Source: [Scytonema hofmanni] UTEX 2349 (GTDB taxonomy: Bacteria; Cyanobacteriota; Cyanobacteriia; Cyanobacteriales; Nostocaceae). From it: a stretch of 8,428 nucleotides of DNA. The notes beneath the pieces were generated by a model. It did not search any database. It was not told the origin of the DNA and worked only from the letters and a program-made list of their open reading frames with translations. This document shows, in pieces, positions 1-6,896 of the stretch; within the stretch, counting starts at the first letter, position 1; each line of letters opens with the position of its first letter. The position numbers and the translations under genes were made by a program. The stretch is from assembly GCF_000582685.1 (NCBI RefSeq), contig NZ_KK073768.1:3928917-3937344 (forward strand), in the 5' to 3' direction.

Positions 1-625
1 CGACCAAGCCGAACCCCTGTATCTCCAAGCTTTAGACCTCTTGAAACGCCTGCTGGGAGACAATCATCCCCATGTCGCCACCAGCCTCAACAATTTAGCA
101 TATCTCTACAATTGCCAAGGAAAGTACGACCAAGCCGAACCCCTTTATCTCCAAGCTTTAGAACTCAGACAAAGCCTGCTGGGAGACAATCATCCCGATG
201 TCGCCACCAGCCTCAATAACTTGGCATTACTCTACTATTCCCAAGGAAAGTACGACCAAGCCGAACCCCTGTATCTCCAAGCTTTAGAACTCAGACAAAG
301 CCTGCTGGGAGACAATCATCCCGATGTCGCCACCAGCCTCAACAACTTGGCTGCACTCTACTATTCCCAAGGAAAGTACGACCAAGCCGAACCCCTGTAT
401 CTCCAAGCTTTAGAACTCAGACAATACCTGCTGGGAGACAATCATCCCCATGTCGCCCAAAGCCTCAACAACTTGGCTAAACTCTACTATTCCCAAGGAA
501 AGTACGACCAAGCCGAACCCCTGTATCTCCAAGCTTTGAATATTTTCGAGCAAAGTTTAGGAGGGAATCATCCTAATACTGTGAGAGTGCGTGAGAATTT
601 AGCAAATTTGCGCGATCATCTCTAA
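1..625 (+). repeat. Tandem 126-bp coding repeat, four near-identical units plus a degenerate capping unit
   Basis: CGACCAAGCCGAACCCCT recurs at 1, 127, 253, 379 and 505 (period exactly 126 bp = 42 codons). Units 2-4 differ at only a handful of nucleotides. Unit 5 (505-622) diverges after about 35 nt. Confidence 0.95.
2..625 (+). CDS. TPR-repeat protein, C-terminal part (5' end lies outside the window); 42-aa kinesin-light-chain-type TPR units
   Basis: The reading frame is open from base 2 (DQAEPLYLQALDL...), so the TTG at 41 in the ORF track is not the true start. Stop TAA at 623-625. Five consecutive 42-aa units of the form LGDNHPxVATSLNNLAxLYxSQGKYDQAEPLYLQALEL, typical of TPR_10/TPR_12-like repeats. 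Confidence 0.9.
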   Translation, partial: DQAEPLYLQALDLLKRLLGDNHPHVATSLNNLAYLYNCQGKYDQAEPLYLQALELRQSLLGDNHPDVATSLNNLALLYYSQGKYDQAEPLYLQALELRQSLLGDNHPDVATSLNNLAALYYSQGKYDQAEPLYLQALELRQYLLGDNHPHVAQSLNNLAKLYYSQGKYDQAEPLYLQALNIFEQSLGGNHPNTVRVRENLANLRDHL

Positions 626-679
626 TAAGAACAAGAAAATTTACCTTCCCAACCTCATCACTCTAGCTTTTATCTCCAA

Positions 680-784: not shown

Positions 785-905
785 TAAAAAAAGACTGAAA
801 ACTAGACAGAGTAAACTTTATACACCAAAAGTGAAATAATCACTCAATCAGAATTGAGCGATCGCACCCGTAGAAATTGATCTCAAACTAATCTAAAATC
901 CAAAA

Positions 906-1024
906 TTACTTGCCGTTACCGTTGCCATTAATAGTAACAATGCGATCGCTGAGTTTTTCCGGCACCTCTTGCAAATGGTCGTATTGCCAGTGGAAGGAAC
1001 CGACGCCTAAAGTAAGCGATCGCA
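906..1024 (-). pseudogene. Orphan 3'-terminal fragment (last 38 codons plus stop) of the EF-G-like gene; direct-repeat copy A
   Basis: Positions 901-1024 align without gaps to 2033-2156 (offset 1132) with 4 mismatches (942, 951, 966, 978). Read on the minus strand it encodes RSLTLGVGSFHWQYDHLQEVPEKLSDRIVTINGNGNGK*, identical to the C-terminus of the 677-aa protein. An in-frame TAA lies shortly upstream and there is no plausible start, so it is not an independent gene. Confidence 0.9.
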
Positions 1025-1109
1025 CTATTACTAAATAATGTAAGGCTTATAAAATAAGCTTTTCATCTTTATTGAAATTTTTCCTACTCTGCAATCGCTC
1101 TCCCGATTT

Positions 1110-1433
1110 TCAAGCTATAGAAACAGGCTGCGAATCCGGTAGAAAAGCCAGCACAATATCACGCTCAAGAATACCTTTATTAATTAAGTCCTGAGTAATT
1201 CCACATTCCATACCATCGTATTCAATTATTACTTTCCCATTCTCGATAATTACATAGATCAGGTTGCCACGCACCCGCTTTCCTCTATCCCAACCAACCT
1301 GCATCAGAGCATAGCGATCGCGCATCTCGTCAAATATGGCATCTAAGCGAATATTACCGTGAGATGGGCGTAGTTTGGCATAATCACTAATTACCTGTTT
1401 GACGATTTCTCTGCTTGTCGTGATGGTATCCAT
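1110..1433 (-). CDS. xisI: XisI-family protein (fdxN-element excision-controlling factor family), 107 aa
   Basis: The internal ATG at 1433-1431 starts MDTITTSREIVKQVISDYAKLRPSHGNIRLDAIFDEMRDRYALMQVGWDRGKRVRGNLIYVIIENGKVIIEYDGMECGITQDLINKGILERDIVLAF... This matches the XisI pattern recalled from memory (IFD..RD.Y.L..VGW......G....I.NGK..I..DG.E.GI...L...GI....IVLAF). In the ORF track it forms the C-terminal part of the 265-aa ORF 1110..1907. Confidence 0.85.
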   Translation of the reverse strand: MDTITTSREIVKQVISDYAKLRPSHGNIRLDAIFDEMRDRYALMQVGWDRGKRVRGNLIYVIIENGKVIIEYDGMECGITQDLINKGILERDIVLAFLPDSQPVSIA

Positions 1434-1862
1434 TGGCTTACTTCCTTTTTCTCTAAATCTACAATAATCAGCTTTAAAGGTAGTTGAGCGATGGCGTAAC
1501 CGCCTGCCGTAGGCAATCGCTAGTTTTCCAATTGGTTCAGTAAATATGTCGCTGTAGGTTGCTTCAGAAACAGCAAGATAAAGGTCACGTTCTGGATCGA
1601 CTTGATTAAGTAACAGGCGATATAGCGTATATTGACCAATAGCTTGCTCTAAGTCAGCTACTTGAGATTGTCCACGAAATTGTTTAATTTCAATGGCAAT
1701 GTGTTTATTTCCCTGCCGAACTCCAATAAAGCCACTTGCACCAAGATCCACAAATAAAAAACGCTCACCATAGGAAATAACATAGGGATCGTCCGTAATT
1801 TCCCAACCGTCTTTGATAATTGCCTCTTTAACAGTTTCGTGAATGGAGTCTCTGGCTGGCAC
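1391..1862 (-). pseudogene. xisH: XisH-family gene (restriction-endonuclease-like fold family) carrying a +1 frame disruption near 1491-1519
   Basis: The canonical N-terminus (M/V)PARDSIHETVKEAIIKDGWEITDDP begins at GTG 1862-1860, preceded by GAGGAG. The TTG at 1907 used by the track adds 15 atypical residues. XisH-like sequence runs in the track frame to ...TEPIGKLAIAY. The conserved XisH C-terminus LPLKLIIVDLEKKEVSQWIP is encoded in the +1 frame (open 1519..1394, TAA at 1393-1391). Confidence 0.75.
1487..1521 (-). repeat. 35-nt imperfect palindrome inside xisH at the frame-disruption site
   Basis: The minus-strand sequence is AGCGATTGCCTACGGCAGGCGGTTACGCCATCGCT. Arms AGCGATTGCCTA and TACGCCATCGCT are complementary at 10 of 12 positions around an 11-nt centre. 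Confidence 0.7.
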
Positions 1863-1981
1863 TTTATTATAATTCTCCTCGGAATGCACGATTTTGAAGG
1901 GAGGCAAAGTTACTCATTGGATTACTCTATACCTCCCATCAGTCTTTCAAGTGACTGCCGCACCGGACTTTCAACTATTAA

Positions 1982-2002
1982 CCCGGAACTTAATGTTCCG
2001 GG
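1982..2002 (-). terminator. Putative intrinsic terminator hairpin downstream of the EF-G-like gene
   Basis: Perfect 8-bp inverted repeat CCCGGAAC (1982-1989) / GTTCCGGG (1995-2002) with a 5-nt loop, about 35 nt past the stop codon. On the minus strand it is followed by TTAATAGTT, which is only moderately T-rich. Confidence 0.5.
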
Positions 2003-2016
2003 CTAATGTTGATTCT

Positions 2017-2156
2017 AGACTAATCGCAAATTCAAAATTACTTGCCGTTACCGTTGCCATTAATAGTAACAATACGATCGCTAAGTTTTTCCGGCACTTC
2101 TTGCAAATGATCGTATTGCCAGTGGAAGGAACCGACGCCTAAAGTAAGCGATCGCA
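2017..2156 (-). repeat. Direct-repeat copy B: the in-use 3' end of the EF-G-like gene plus about 20 nt of 3' flank
   Basis: Partner of 885-1024. Positions 2033-2156 are 120/124 identical to 901-1024. In the flank just past the stop, 2013-2032 matches 881-900 at only 13/20. Confidence 0.9.
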
Positions 2157-4071
2157 ACTCTACTATAAAGTCGTGCATTTCGGCTTGGGGCAAATAAGCT
2201 GAGATATTATCCCATCCTTGCCAATCGTTTCTTCCTTCATAGCCCAAAATTTGACCTCGTTTGCCACTTAAAAGTTGCAGGGCTTTTGAGGTAAATTCAC
2301 TGGGGGTTGTCACTTCCACATGTAGAATTGGTTCTAGCAAAATGGGTTCTCCTTTAGGTATTCCCGTTTGCATTGCTAATCGAGCAGCTTGCTTAAATGC
2401 TTGTTCGGAACTATCAACGTTATGATAAGAACCATTCGTTAAAGTTACCGCTACATCTACCACGGGGAAACCCAAGGGACCGTGTGCTAAAAACTCACGT
2501 ACACCCATTTCTACCCCAGGAATGTATTGTTTGGGAACGACACCACCGACAATGCGATCGCTAAAATTAAAGCCTTCACCGCGTCCTAAAGGTTTAATAT
2601 CGAGAAAAACATCGCCAAATTGTCCATGTCCACCGCTTTGGTGTTTGTAGCGTCCGTGAATCGATTCTACAGGTTTGCGAATAGTTTCTTTATAAGGAAC
2701 TTGCGGCAGGTGAGTTGTCATTGGTAAATTATATTTGCGGTGCAATCTGTCTAAAGCGACTTGCAAATGTATTTCACCTTGTCCCCAAAGAATAACTTCG
2801 TGAGTATCACCGTGTTGTTCCCAAGCAAGAGATGGATCTTCTTCTAATAGTTTGGCGATCGCACCACTAAGTTTAACTTCATCGTTGCGCTTTTCGGGAG
2901 TAATTGCCAGAGCATAAACTGGTTCTAATTGTTCAGCTTTTGGTAATTCCTTTGATTGTTGACAAGAAAGTGTATCCCCAGTTTTGACATTTTCTAAACG
3001 GCTTAAAGCGACGATTTCCCCAGCATCAGCTTCTTGAAGTGATTTCTGTTGTTGTCCCATGAGGCGATAAATTCCCCCAGCACGAACGCCGTTGAGGAGA
3101 ATACCATCAGTTAGTTTACCACGCCAAACACGCACTAGAGAAAGTTTCCCACCTTGAGGAGTATAGTAGGTTTTTATGACTTGCGCTATGGGAGTATTGC
3201 CTTTGCGGTCTTTTAAACGGCGTTCTGCGGTGGTTTCTGGTTCCGGTGCTTCGCGTAATAAAGCTTCTAATAAAGGTCGCACACCATAATCAAGTTCGGC
3301 AATACCAAAGAAAACAGGTACTACTAAATCTGCGCTTAATTCCAGTTTTAAATCTTTGAGAATTTCTTCTTGGGGTGGTTCGATGTCTTCTAAAAGTTCT
3401 TCGAGTAAATGATCGTCAAAATTTGCTAAAGCTTCAAGCATTTCTGCTCGTGCGATGTGTTCTTCTTCTTTAAGAGATTCGGGAAACGGGATGGGATCGG
3501 CAGGTGCCCCAGGATGATATTGATAAGCTTGTTCGGTGACTAAATCGATAAAGCCGGTTAGCTGTTCCCCATTCATGATGGGATATTGGTGTGCTACCAA
3601 AGGACGACTAGAAACAGTTTTGAGAGCGTGTAAAGTTTCTAGAACATGGATATTTGCCCGATCCATTTTGTTCACAAAGACGAGATGGGGAATTTCCCAA
3701 TCGTCAAGGAATTTAAATAAAGGTGCTAGGGTAAGGACGCGATCGCGTATCGGTTCGCAAACTACAATTGCTGCATCGACTCCTATTAAAGCATTGTAGG
3801 TTTCCTGGGCAAATTCCACCGAACCGGGACAATCAATAAAGGTAAAGCGAATATCGTTGTATTGAGTGCTTGCTGTGCTTACTTCAACACTCATATGGCG
3901 ATCGCGCTCTACTGCCGCACTATCTCCTATTGTATTCCCATCTTTGACATTGCCTTTGCGGGAAATTGCTCCTGTGACAAATAACAAACTTTCTAGTAAT
4001 GTGGTCTTCCCGCTTAAATAAGGACCGACAATTGCAACGTTTCGCGAACCCGATTTTACTTTTTCGTTCAT
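2038..4071 (-). CDS. EF-G-family translational GTPase paralog (elongation factor G-like, divergent G motifs), 677 aa
   Basis: ATG at 4071 is preceded by AAGGAGGTTTT. P-loop GPYLSGKTT, G3 DCPGSVEF, G4 NKMD, and domain-IV hallmark GSYHNVDSSEQAFKQAARLA. Five-domain EF-G length. The G1 and G3 motifs deviate from the canonical AHxDxGKTT and DTPGHxDF. Confidence 0.9.
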   Translation of the reverse strand: MNEKVKSGSRNVAIVGPYLSGKTTLLESLLFVTGAISRKGNVKDGNTIGDSAAVERDRHMSVEVSTASTQYNDIRFTFIDCPGSVEFAQETYNALIGVDAAIVVCEPIRDRVLTLAPLFKFLDDWEIPHLVFVNKMDRANIHVLETLHALKTVSSRPLVAHQYPIMNGEQLTGFIDLVTEQAYQYHPGAPADPIPFPESLKEEEHIARAEMLEALANFDDHLLEELLEDIEPPQEEILKDLKLELSADLVVPVFFGIAELDYGVRPLLEALLREAPEPETTAERRLKDRKGNTPIAQVIKTYYTPQGGKLSLVRVWRGKLTDGILLNGVRAGGIYRLMGQQQKSLQEADAGEIVALSRLENVKTGDTLSCQQSKELPKAEQLEPVYALAITPEKRNDEVKLSGAIAKLLEEDPSLAWEQHGDTHEVILWGQGEIHLQVALDRLHRKYNLPMTTHLPQVPYKETIRKPVESIHGRYKHQSGGHGQFGDVFLDIKPLGRGEGFNFSDRIVGGVVPKQYIPGVEMGVREFLAHGPLGFPVVDVAVTLTNGSYHNVDSSEQAFKQAARLAMQTGIPKGEPILLEPILHVEVTTPSEFTSKALQLLSGKRGQILGYEGRNDWQGWDNISAYLPQAEMHDFIVELRSLTLGVGSFHWQYDHLQEVPEKLSDRIVTINGNGNGK

Positions 4072-4346
4072 AAAACCTCCTTTGCGGTGAGCTTACAGCC
4101 GCATATGCAGATTTATTTGGGAATAAAAATCTTGATGCACGATTGTTATCCCCTCTTTAATTTGTCATTATCCTTCTTTTAACCTAGTTAACAAAAAATC
4201 GTAGCTTGTTGTAAGATTTACCTGAAGAAAATTTAAGTTGTACAAACTTTGATACAAATTTCCAAAGTTTTGTAAAAACATTTCTTTTCAAACAAAGCTT
4301 TTAGTGAAGTAAACGTCACTAAAGATGTCGCAAGGAGTAAAAGTCA
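4072..4346. promoter_or_regulatory. AT-rich divergent intergenic region between the EF-G-like gene and the TPR gene, containing two inverted repeats
   Basis: Inverted repeat ACAAACTTTG (4242-4251) / CAAAGTTTTGT (4263-4273). Perfect 8-bp inverted repeat TTTAGTGA (4300-4307) / TCACTAAA (4316-4323) just upstream of the AAGGAG ribosome-binding site of the 4347 gene. No promoter boxes could be assigned with confidence. Confidence 0.35.
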
Positions 4347-5330
4347 ATGAGATTATCATTCTATAAATATCGCATAGGAAGGCTGATAAGTTTGATTTTG
4401 TTGGGTAGCGGGATTATCTTACCGTCTTCCTCTGCTTCTGCACAGACGCGATTAATCGGATCTCCCGCACAGACGCGATTAATCGCGTCTCTACAATTTT
4501 ATCCTCCTGTAAAGCTGGCACAATATAATAGTAATCAAACTGCTACAGATTGGTTAAATCAAGGCTTGCAAGCGATAAATGTGGGTAGAGTAGAAGATGC
4601 GATCGCTTCTTTTAACCAAGCAATTAAGCTGGATCCGAATTTGGCACCAGCACATTATAATTTAGGGTTAGCCCTGCGACAAGTCGGACAATTACAACCT
4701 GCGGCAGATGCATTTTATCGCGCAACTCTAGCCGATCCTAAATTTGCACCGGCTTTTGCTAATTTGGGGGGAGCGTTGTTGGAAGGTAATAATTTACAAC
4801 AGGCAAATGATTATTTGCAACGAGCTTTGCAACTTGATTCCAAGCTAGGTTTTGCTCATTATAATTTTGGTTTGCTGCGAGAGCAACAACGGGATTGGGA
4901 TAAAGCGATCGCATCTTTTAAAAAAGCAATGGAATATAGTAAAAATGCACCAGAACCAGCTTATCATCTGGGAATATGTTATCTGCAACAAAACAAACTT
5001 GATCAAGCTAAAGATGCATTTCGTAAAGCAGTTAAAATTAATCCTAAATATTCAGAAGCTCATTATACTTTGGGAACGATTTGGTATAACCAAAATAAAT
5101 TAAAAGAAGCTTTAGAAGCATTTAGAAAATCCGCTGAGGCAAACACAAATTATCCCAACGCTTATTACGGTGCGGGGTTAGTTTTTATGCAATTAAGACA
5201 ATATCCGCAAGCCGCAGAGGTATTACAATATGCCAGAGATTTATATAATTCTCAAAATAATACTTTGTGGGCAAGAAATGCCGAACAATTGTTACAACAA
5301 GTACAGAATTTAAATTATCAACCCCGTTGA
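4347..5330 (+). CDS. Secreted or periplasmic TPR-repeat protein, 327 aa
   Basis: AAGGAG lies 9 nt upstream of the ATG. N-terminal signal peptide (RLISLILLGSGIILPSSSASA|Q). About seven 34-aa TPR units (for example AIASFNQAIKLDPNLAPAHYNLGLAL and AKDAFRKAVKINPKYSEAHYTLGTIW). Confidence 0.9.
   Translation: MRLSFYKYRIGRLISLILLGSGIILPSSSASAQTRLIGSPAQTRLIASLQFYPPVKLAQYNSNQTATDWLNQGLQAINVGRVEDAIASFNQAIKLDPNLAPAHYNLGLALRQVGQLQPAADAFYRATLADPKFAPAFANLGGALLEGNNLQQANDYLQRALQLDSKLGFAHYNFGLLREQQRDWDKAIASFKKAMEYSKNAPEPAYHLGICYLQQNKLDQAKDAFRKAVKINPKYSEAHYTLGTIWYNQNKLKEALEAFRKSAEANTNYPNAYYGAGLVFMQLRQYPQAAEVLQYARDLYNSQNNTLWARNAEQLLQQVQNLNYQPR
4440..4493 (+). repeat. In-frame 27-nt tandem duplication containing a perfect 20-bp palindrome (small dispersed palindromic repeat type)
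   Basis: GCACAGACGCGATTAATCG occurs at 4440-4458 and 4467-4485 (period 27 nt), encoding AQTRLIGSP and AQTRLIASL. AGACGCGATTAATCGCGTCT (4471-4490) is its own reverse complement. The right arm CGTCTCTACAA (4486-4496) is identical to 6142-6152. Confidence 0.85.
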
Positions 5331-6120: not shown

Positions 6121-6159
6121 TGTAGAGACGTAGCAGTGCTACGTCTCTACAAGGGTTTT
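6121..6159 (+). terminator. Strong hairpin plus T-run 20 nt after the PsiE-like stop; also a member of the GTAGAGACG...CGTCTCTAC palindromic repeat family
   Basis: Perfect 14-bp stem TGTAGAGACGTAGC (6121-6134) / GCTACGTCTCTACA (6138-6151), 3-nt loop, followed by AGGGTTTTG. Confidence 0.6.
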
Positions 6160-6767: not shown

Positions 6768-6896
6768 CGTAGTAAGCACTTCAGTGCTTAAATCTAATTG
6801 AGCAATAAATTGCTCACTACGAATTACTCATATATTTAGGATAAATCTACCTAAAAGTAGATGCATTAATAATTGAGCAATAAATTGCTCACTACG
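6768..6896. repeat. Two copies of a 27-nt hairpin-containing repeat plus additional hairpins, upstream of the DUF1499-like gene
   Basis: TAATTGAGCAATAAATTGCTCACTACG occurs at 6795-6821 and 6870-6896; each contains the hairpin GAGCAAT/ATTGCTC. Extra hairpins are AAGCACT-TC-AGTGCTT (6774-6789) and ATCTAC-CTAAAA-GTAGAT (6845-6862). CGTAGTAAG (6768-6776) pairs with CTCACTACG (6813-6821) at 8 of 9 positions, enclosing the first unit. Confidence 0.75.

Follow-up and report, generated by a model that had tools for sequence, protein, structure and literature searches.

A duplicated elongation factor G gene end around an xisHI cassette in Scytonema hofmanni suggests a recombination hotspot with HIP1 junctions in Nostocales

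The stretch of DNA analysed here (the window) comprises 8,428 nucleotides of Scytonema hofmanni UTEX 2349 (contig NZ_KK073768.1, positions 3,928,917 to 3,937,344) and contains a gene for a paralogue of elongation factor G (EF-G) whose 3' end is present a second time downstream, beyond a small cassette of the genes xisH and xisI (xisHI). The product of this gene matches NCBIfam NF009379 'elongation factor G' with 1088 bits. In the outgroup loci L001-L004 (loci used for comparison are designated by L numbers), synteny is kept upstream of the EF-G paralogue but not downstream of it. Read in the orientation of the gene, its stop codon is followed by the hairpin T1, about 65 nt, a relic of the type I restriction gene hsdS, xisH, xisI, a degenerate copy of HIP1 (an 8-nt palindrome common in cyanobacteria), a spacer, a true HIP1 and the second copy of the gene end (Table 1). 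T1 is also found behind the gene in L001, L012, L018, L020, L023, L029, L030, L035, L041, L052, L060, L070 and L074. Scans of the window with Rfam and for tRNA genes gave no matches.

Table 1. Positions of the features of the window that are discussed in the text
Feature	Position	Strand	Remarks
EF-G paralogue, 677 aa	2038..4071	-	Five/five EF-G domains (Pfam); conserved anchor at edge of variable island
Gene-proximal repeat copy, core 2033-2156	2009..2165	-	Working gene end and ~30 nt past the stop
HIP1 octamer GCGATCGC within the gene	2148..2155	.	Codons L-R-S-L; start point of the duplication
T1 hairpin just past the gene's stop	1976..2005	-	-21.6 kcal/mol, z = -7.5; conserved terminator-like leader
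xisHI unit common to unrelated contexts (hsdS relic, xisH, xisI)	1100..1909	-	95.8% to L085, 92.3% to L087, flanks unrelated
hsdS relic, last 13 codons and stop	1867..1908	-	FASLQNRAFRGEL and stop; directly upstream of xisH
xisH, PD-(D/E)XK family	1391..1862	-	GTG start at 1862; frameshifted near 3' end
25-nt mini-insertion in xisH	1492..1516	.	Resembles small dispersed repeat; splits HIP1-like AGCGAT-CGCT
xisI, 107 aa	1110..1433	-	Intact; Pfam XisI matches 1-101 of 110
XisH-XisI fusion ORF, 250 aa	1110..1862	-	From the xisH frameshift; annotated as fusion at NCBI
Spacer, xisI to downstream copy	1025..1099	-	Starts with degenerate HIP1 GCGATTGC (1091-1098), ends with true HIP1; 66 nt between them
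HIP1 octamer, left edge of downstream copy	1016..1023	.	Cassette joined here to displaced gene end
Downstream repeat copy, core 901-1024	877..1033	-	Displaced gene end, detached from the gene
Terminator-like hairpin and U-run behind downstream copy	838..863	-	-12.2 kcal/mol, z = -2.7

The core of the repeat aligns without gaps between 901-1024 and 2033-2156, with 120 of 124 nucleotides identical, and a repeat finder widens the pair to the limits given in Table 1 at 90% identity. The duplicated block consists of the stop codon and the final 38 codons of the gene. All four mismatched pairs (942/2074, 951/2083, 966/2098 and 978/2110) are third-position transitions, and they are silent because both copies encode one and the same peptide, LRSLTLGVGSFHWQYDHLQEVPEKLSDRIVTINGNGNGK followed by the stop. 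Past the stop, 13 of the first 20 nt match. The probability that four random changes in this sequence would all be silent was computed as 0.0024 for any change and as 0.015 for transitions only; if one copy were under selection while the other drifted, the value is estimated (not computed) to be ~0.03. On the side towards the gene interior, the edge of the repeat coincides exactly with a HIP1 octamer in both copies. Direct repeats that include the 3' end of a gene, with the gene itself left intact, are the form taken by integrative elements that target 3' ends. An earlier note on this DNA, made from its letters alone, had described the repeat, its four silent differences and the higher divergence past the stop, and these points were confirmed by alignment and translation, as was its statement that the segment encodes no recombinase: only xisH, xisI and the hsdS relic lie between the copies. 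Its concern about misassembly can also be dismissed. Two contigs, one of 112 kb and one of 5.4 Mb, carry an identical EF-G protein and an identical 250-aa XisH-XisI fusion (the proteins are named Scytonema hofmannii FACHB-248 or MULTISPECIES Nostocales), and the order of gene, xisHI and copy is found again in L086, a relative at 94% identity; the duplication is therefore real and no assembly artefact. Two points are absent from that note, namely the HIP1 at the edge of the repeat and the fusion of the two reading frames by a frameshift in xisH.

The two copies differ from each other in the way that alleles of a working gene do. Across 12 loci, the gene copy and the downstream copy show a synonymous divergence (pS) of 0.31 and a nonsynonymous divergence (pN) of 0.049. 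The resulting ratio of ~0.16 is close to the baseline of 0.08 for gene copies of different species and far from 1, and some downstream copies show later decay in the form of frameshifts, stops or truncation. The sister locus L086 and, as outgroups, L001-L004 served to polarise the differences. The codons GAT, CTT and CGT are common to the gene copy of the window and both copies of L086; the downstream copy of the window has GAC, CTC and CGC as in L001 or L003, and GAC and CGC are found in the outgroups. The first 32 nt past the stop of the downstream copy (TAATTTTGGATTTTAGATTAGTTTGAGATCAA) are identical to those behind the gene of Tolypothrix L002. An origin of the copies in two lineages is thus supported by the outgroup codons and the Tolypothrix-type post-stop sequence of the downstream copy. 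The gene-proximal copy would be a 'T1-type' allele that arrived with the cassette, and the downstream copy is most simply seen as the displaced native end of the lineage. In L086 the downstream copy is chimeric, being gene-type up to 22 nt past the stop and native-type after it, a tract of gene conversion. Replacement of gene ends can be traced elsewhere as well. L017 (Dendronalium) and L014 share 87.7% identity in the gene body but 94.5% in its last ~120 nt, and past the stop they hardly differ; a recombinant breakpoint close to the end of the gene is clear. Carriers of the same cassette are not nearest relatives on the gene body, and cassette types are not monophyletic.

The window is one instance of an arrangement that recurs across the order. 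One scan of species-representative genomes carrying the EF-G paralogue gave 80 Nostocales loci, and in 15 of the 80 species the final ~120 nt of the gene (~120-150 nt) reappear 0.5-4.5 kb downstream; remnants of 18-37 nt are left in 4 further species. The cargo between the copies comprises HicA/HicB (L020, L023, L035, L070, L074), PIN with a ribbon-helix-helix (RHH) protein (L047, L057), PIN with another antitoxin (L002), an SPFH/Band_7 protein (L027, L039, L047, L059, L069, L074) or a three-gene set of HATPase, 233-aa protein and metallo-beta-lactamase (MBL) fold (L011, L028). None of the 80 species genomes has xisH or xisI behind the gene, and an element specific to xisHI was dropped as a candidate on this ground. 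No recombinase was found in the cargo of the 16 filled sites (the window and the 15 species). Open reading frames (ORFs) of at least 150 aa from the downstream flanks fall into 115 clusters, so that the gene content behind the gene is highly varied; no recombinase is present among the 25 most frequent Pfam families of these clusters, families of single clusters not being listed. The region is a patchwork of modules, each with its own leader. Within the ~1.1 Mb of the 80 loci, 13 spaced direct repeats begin in the last 200 nt of the gene; the other spaced direct repeats there amount to 51 hits, which on reading of the list largely overlap within repeat-rich genes.

Empty and filled sites can be compared directly in the Nostoc clade. 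In the empty state, the gene is followed by a T3 terminator and a 156-aa ORF; in the filled state, the order is gene, cargo, second copy, T3 and 156-aa ORF. In seven such pairs, the empty site is collinear with the filled gene copy from -599 to about +1..+25, and again with the downstream copy and its flank from about -110..-127 onwards over 0.2-1.0 kb, and the overlap of the two collinear pieces is the duplicated segment. An empty site, which the earlier note had proposed to look for, is hence found in the Nostoc clade but not in the lineage of the window, where nothing like 626-876 stands behind the gene in the relatives compared; L002 has just the first 32 post-stop nt of the downstream copy. 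Other proposals of that note fared unequally. Divergence of the copies as functional gene ends in different lineages is upheld by the excess of pS over pN, the outgroup codons and the post-stop sequence of L002, and the import of a replacement 3' end is supported by the clean empty and filled sites of the Nostoc clade. A minimal xisHI unit with att-like repeats of its own has to be given up, as the duplicated end occurs without xisHI in 15 of 80 species, an outcome that the note itself had named as counting against it. Nor do the repeats bound an xisHI element: the unit shared with other genomes is confined to 1100-1909, inside the repeats, and elsewhere it lies behind hsdS.

HIP1 stands at the joins of these modules. 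The left edge of the downstream copy is the same HIP1 in every species that has a copy, and in several of them the boundary octamer is split by a 22-nt insert (GCG-TAGGCTTTGCCCGCCGTAGGC-ATCGC). On their right, HicAB and PIN/RHH cassettes likewise finish in HIP1 (...GCG, insert, ATCGCT). Past the HIP1 at the cassette end follows the gene end in some species, the leader CCAAGGCTGAG... in others and other sequence in a few, and modules have therefore been exchanged exactly at HIP1. The window holds 17 copies of HIP1, ~1 per 500 nt, a density at which repeated chance coincidence with junctions is unlikely. Microhomology at the join amounts to the 8 nt of HIP1 and extends to 13 nt at most (GCGATCGCTTACT). 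The 95-nt segment at 1007-1099 occurs twice more in the source genome, in its locus L081 that reaches beyond the window (19169-19256 at 87% and 17410-17467 at 84%). At L081 19240, ~6 kb further on, spacer and HIP1 are followed not by the gene end but by GCGATCGCTTACTCTAGAC / TTACTCTAGAC; judged by eye, 17 of 19 positions of this continuation agree with the site in the gene, and it has the look of a partner site that has not recombined. An AT-rich 'tail' in front of the downstream copies was considered as a shared att arm and rejected: in the Nostoc clade it is the palindromic promoter/operator of an RHH-PIN operon, and its counterpart in the window is a spacer found again within the same island. 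The resemblance of the tail to gene sequence upstream of HIP1 (~9/16 by eye) was too weak and was not used. According to PMC5861425, SDR5 repeats insert into HIP1 in Nostocaceae (citing Elhai 2008), and HIP1 had earlier been discussed as a possible site of recombination (citing Akiyama 1998). The function of HIP1 is described as an open question (PMC5861425).

The xisHI cassette has a history of its own. Both products belong to their Pfam families, XisH (PF08814) with E = 6e-43 and XisI (PF08869) with E = 5e-29. The XisH match covers model positions 2-116 of 134 only, and the lost C-terminus ...LPLKLIIVDLEKKEVSQWIP lies in another frame. Separate intact frames, as would be expected of an excision pair, are not present: the 25-nt insertion shifts the frame of xisH, which thereby runs on into xisI as a single fused ORF. 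On the + strand this insertion is TGGCGTAACCGCCTGCCGTAGGCAA, and its motif GCCTGCCGTAGGC occurs once in the window. In an alignment that does not cover L086 at this position, the window and L085 have the insertion, the latter in identical form, and L087 and L084 lack it; an intact 148-aa xisH ORF is found in L086 and L084. This pattern implies either independent insertion or exchange of xisHI copies. XisI is 97-98% identical among L085, L086 and L087. A metagenome scan with XisI gave, among other loci, L085, L087 and L127, and in all three the xisHI unit lies directly behind ...LFASLQHRAFRGEL and a stop. The gene with this ending is a type I restriction hsdS in L085 and L087 (Methylase_S match), and hsdR follows the xisHI unit in L087. 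The left junction of L127 is the same as that of the window unit, with 88% identity over window 1206-1909, where the contig of L127 ends. Since the window retains 13 hsdS codons, the cassette appears to have been acquired earlier at a type I restriction locus, along with the end of the gene that then stood upstream of it. The hsdS-relic motif is carried by 7 of 83 xisI loci, and 8 of the 83 are flanked by direct repeats of at least 40 nt. Neither the window nor the 22-kb source locus encodes an XisF-type large serine recombinase, and PADLOC gave no matches for XisH, XisI, the SPFH protein or the 156-aa ORF. We infer that xisHI is passive, toxin-antitoxin-like cargo and not the agent of the event. 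That such pairs lie in type I restriction loci speaks for a role as toxin-antitoxin or in defence and not for developmental excision alone, and the embedding in type I restriction-modification (R-M) loci suggests such a role by analogy.

Several observations were made beside these. Close xisHI homologues between hsdS and hsdR of type I R-M loci also occur in L082, L094, L097, L098 and L127, and the hsdS-xisHI locus of L085, where the counterpart of the relic is at 3525-3567, adjoins a tyrosine integrase and a ParA gene. Among the cargo, the three-gene set encodes a protein of 683 aa that has two HATPase domains, one of 233 aa that gave no matches and one of 339 aa with a metallo-beta-lactamase fold. 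It lies at +0.4 to +4.2 kb in L011 and L028 and also occurs in L043, L049 and L055; PADLOC gave weak matches to RTasMBL and PDC-M48B, and the set is a candidate defence system that travels as a single cassette. The commonest ORF cluster behind the EF-G paralogue (~26/80 loci, e.g. L037 9831-10517) encodes Uma2-family putative restriction endonucleases of the PD-(D/E)XK type, which are abundant in cyanobacteria. PD-(D/E)XK proteins (XisH, Uma2) crowd these islands.

Duplicated gene ends around a small insert are found at other genes as well. In L087, a 309-aa ORF without Pfam or NCBIfam match lies between two diverged hsdS ends that form a 53-nt duplication (2170-2222, 3198-3250). In L094, xisI without xisH lies between 51-nt copies (3938-3988, 4372-4422) of the end of an upstream HTH-antitoxin-like gene, and the edge of the repeat falls in the middle of HIP1 at GCGAT-CGC. 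The xisI locus L122, like L094 one of the 8 flanked by direct repeats, has a 41-nt duplication. These loci show that the duplication of a gene end around a small insert recurs in these genomes and that HIP1 is not always involved. In L083, the gene start and not the end is duplicated: a P-type ATPase gene has its 5' part, promoter included, in two copies (4286-4878, 8474-9527), ~4.2 kb apart at 88-92% identity, on either side of xisI, a pentapeptide-repeat gene and two DUF4351 genes.

Taken at a little better than even confidence, these data suggest a recombination hotspot behind the conserved EF-G paralogue that is filled by homology-facilitated illegitimate recombination with a join at HIP1, and the window would be one filled state of this hotspot in heterocystous cyanobacteria. 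DNA of a related strain would have brought a gene end, the T1 terminator and the xisHI cassette with its 13 hsdS codons. On one side, ordinary homologous recombination would have taken place within the conserved gene; on the other, a short-homology join would have been made between the HIP1 behind the cassette and the HIP1 118 nt before the stop of the gene. The recipient segment between these two points would have been replaced by the donor gene end and cargo, so that the gene now ends in the imported allele and the native end, with its own terminator, has been pushed downstream as a dead copy. A recombinase encoded by the element would not be necessary. Later, the copies may convert each other or may recombine and delete the cassette; as the earlier note supposed, recombination between the repeats would restore an intact gene, which the arrangement supports.

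Several points weigh against this proposal. The two copies of the window are each other's nearest relatives (95.8%), and which copy was imported cannot be proven from ~120 nt, since for most loci a segment of this length is short for nearest-neighbour identity to serve as a guide. The pathway of recombination and its direction are read from end products. HIP1 is absent from the left edge of the xisHI unit (1909) and from the edges of the hsdS-end duplication in L087. Where its frequency has been measured, homology-facilitated illegitimate recombination is a rare event (PMC5361080). A precise boundary shared by all species would also be expected from a site-specific recombinase, and the boundary could in part reflect common descent from a single ancient duplication in which cargo was later exchanged and copies were converted, which would weaken the count of independent events.

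The same boundary leads to the idea of site-specific integration, in which small circular cassettes with a replacement gene end and an att core containing HIP1 would be inserted and excised by a recombinase encoded elsewhere, and which can be likened to integrase-less trans-mobilised islands, integrons and cargo-only satellites of tRNA-targeting elements. Its appeal lies in a boundary that is nucleotide-identical in all species, in modules that switch exactly at HIP1, in the recurrence at junctions of sequences like the gene's own boundary (TTGTAGAGnnGCGATCGCTC) and in the 13 spaced direct repeats that begin in the last 200 nt of the gene; an element-borne gene end that replaces the host end is moreover the classic mark of integrases that target 3' ends. 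We consider it unlikely nevertheless, given the lack of a recombinase at the 16 filled sites and among the frequent Pfam families described above, a right edge of the duplication that is diffuse, its homology fading in conserved post-stop sequence, and similar hsdS duplications without HIP1. In addition, the right-hand partner of HIP1 varies (gene end, T4 leader, others), so a single att site is not apparent. A Campbell-type single crossover, the other route offered by the earlier note, by which a circle with xisHI and a fragment of the gene end would have entered through homologous recombination within ~150 nt, needs no recombinase and yields exactly the observed geometry of two chimeric copies around an insert. 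It also fits the allele-like differences, and the circle could form in a donor by deletion from HIP1 to HIP1. Integration through just 120-150 nt at 90-96% identity would, however, be inefficient, transformation delivers linear single strands and makes transfer of an intact small non-replicating circle unlikely, and a circle made and reintegrated in one polyploid cell would double the cargo, which is not seen; this route is accordingly given a distinctly low probability.

Duplication in situ, by slippage or unequal exchange between two HIP1 sites, would require that the differences became silent-only by luck or through later allelic replacement. The window copies are mutually nearest, gene conversion between copies occurs and replacement of a 3' end is seen in L017; by gene-end renewal of the latter type, a frozen old copy beside a renewed end could also come to show silent-only differences. 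Unequal exchange would have doubled the cassette too, the probability of four silent changes out of four is 0.002-0.03 (computed values plus the estimate), the pN/pS over 12 loci is not near 1, and the post-stop leaders of the copies differ, each being of a type found behind an uninterrupted gene elsewhere, so that this origin seems quite improbable. A collapsed or chimeric repeat in the assembly might be suspected because the genome is a draft and repeats of 124 nt can mislead short-read assemblers; with the same proteins on two separate contigs, the layout of L086, the four differences between the copies, their different flanks and the same kind of duplication in the assemblies of 15 other species, its probability is negligible. 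One bolder idea goes beyond the proposed illegitimate join: HIP1 might be the crossover site of a dedicated, integron-like system that shuffles toxin-antitoxin or defence cassettes and replacement gene ends, with a HIP1-directed nuclease or recombinase making the cut and the PD-(D/E)XK proteins XisH or Uma2 as candidates. We regard it as a long shot; if true, HIP1 would gain a function after 30 years with none.

The preferred reading, homology-facilitated illegitimate recombination, was put forward for the displaced effector/immunity arrays of the Vibrio cholerae type VI secretion system (T6SS) and for Rhs orphans (PMC5361080). As in the T6SS and Rhs/CDI arrays described there, a conserved upstream gene serves as homologous anchor, the incoming module carries its own 3' end, the old 3' part is displaced downstream and retained, repeated events make arrays grow, copies come from different strains and not from duplication, and there is no integrase (PMC5361080). 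The features that mark displaced arrays are found here: the 3' part of the anchor is mosaic and moves with the variable downstream region, the old end is retained downstream as an allele different from the working end, and the non-homologous join has short microhomology. Unlike in those arrays, an EF-G paralogue of housekeeping type acts as the anchor, and since its end is no toxin domain, selection for new 'tips' is not apparent; the cargo consists of toxin-antitoxin-like or defence-like cassettes, and the illegitimate join lies on the genome-wide HIP1, with a boundary identical in all species. In Anabaena/Nostoc PCC 7120, XisF, XisH and XisI excise the fdxN element (Ramaswamy et al. 1997, as cited in PMC4874684). 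The window cargo belongs to the same XisH and XisI Pfam families, but it lacks an XisF-type serine recombinase and an interrupted gene, stands behind a gene and not within a developmentally excised element, has a frameshifted xisH and has its close homologues between hsdS and hsdR. The 22-25-nt inserts that split HIP1 or HIP1-like sites at junctions and in xisH resemble the SDR5 repeats mentioned above (PMC5861425); these inserts accompany the duplication and did not cause it.

Islands and prophages in the 3' ends of tRNA, tmRNA or protein genes share with the window direct repeats that correspond to the gene 3' end, an intact gene, empty and filled sites among relatives, and excisability in principle. 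They differ in that no integrase was found here in or beside filled sites, the repeat is long (~130-150 nt) with a diffuse outer edge, and HIP1 joins cassettes to varied partners and apparently not to one att site. Integrase-less cargo-only satellites have reportedly been described among the tycheposons of Prochlorococcus. In contrast to an integron, no integrase was found beside the array, and the junctions are the 8 nt of HIP1 and not attC-like imperfect palindromes of 60-140 nt.

The surroundings contain further repeats. The 3' part of an NB-ARC/TPR gene (window 1-630; 727 aa in L081) consists of 126-nt tandem repeats at 71-92% identity that encode 42-aa TPR_12 units. Past this gene, L081 16400-19335 holds two HicB-like genes, DUF433/DUF5615 and an RHH gene, with internal duplications of 300-350 nt and a third copy of spacer and HIP1 (19169-19256). 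A perfect palindrome of 15+15 nt (TGTAGAGACGTAGCA/TGCTACGTCTCTACA) lies at window 6121-6151, with similar copies in L003 and L086, and a perfect 27-nt direct repeat is found at 6795-6821 and 6870-6896, 75 nt apart; the palindrome and this repeat (6795-6896) are probably small dispersed or MITE-like repeats.

In its general kind, the arrangement is the known displacement array; notable here are its recurrence across an order, a housekeeping-type anchor and HIP1 at the joins. The picture of a curious xisHI mini-element is replaced by a more general one, in which the conserved 3' end of a gene would serve as landing pad and a hyper-abundant 8-nt palindrome as the second join. Landing pad and HIP1 join together would explain how small selfish or defence cassettes can spread among Nostocales without a recombinase of their own. 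Short duplicates of gene ends may be used as markers of such hotspots and for separating imported from native DNA. For HIP1, a concrete and testable role would follow, as a portable microhomology or recombination junction.

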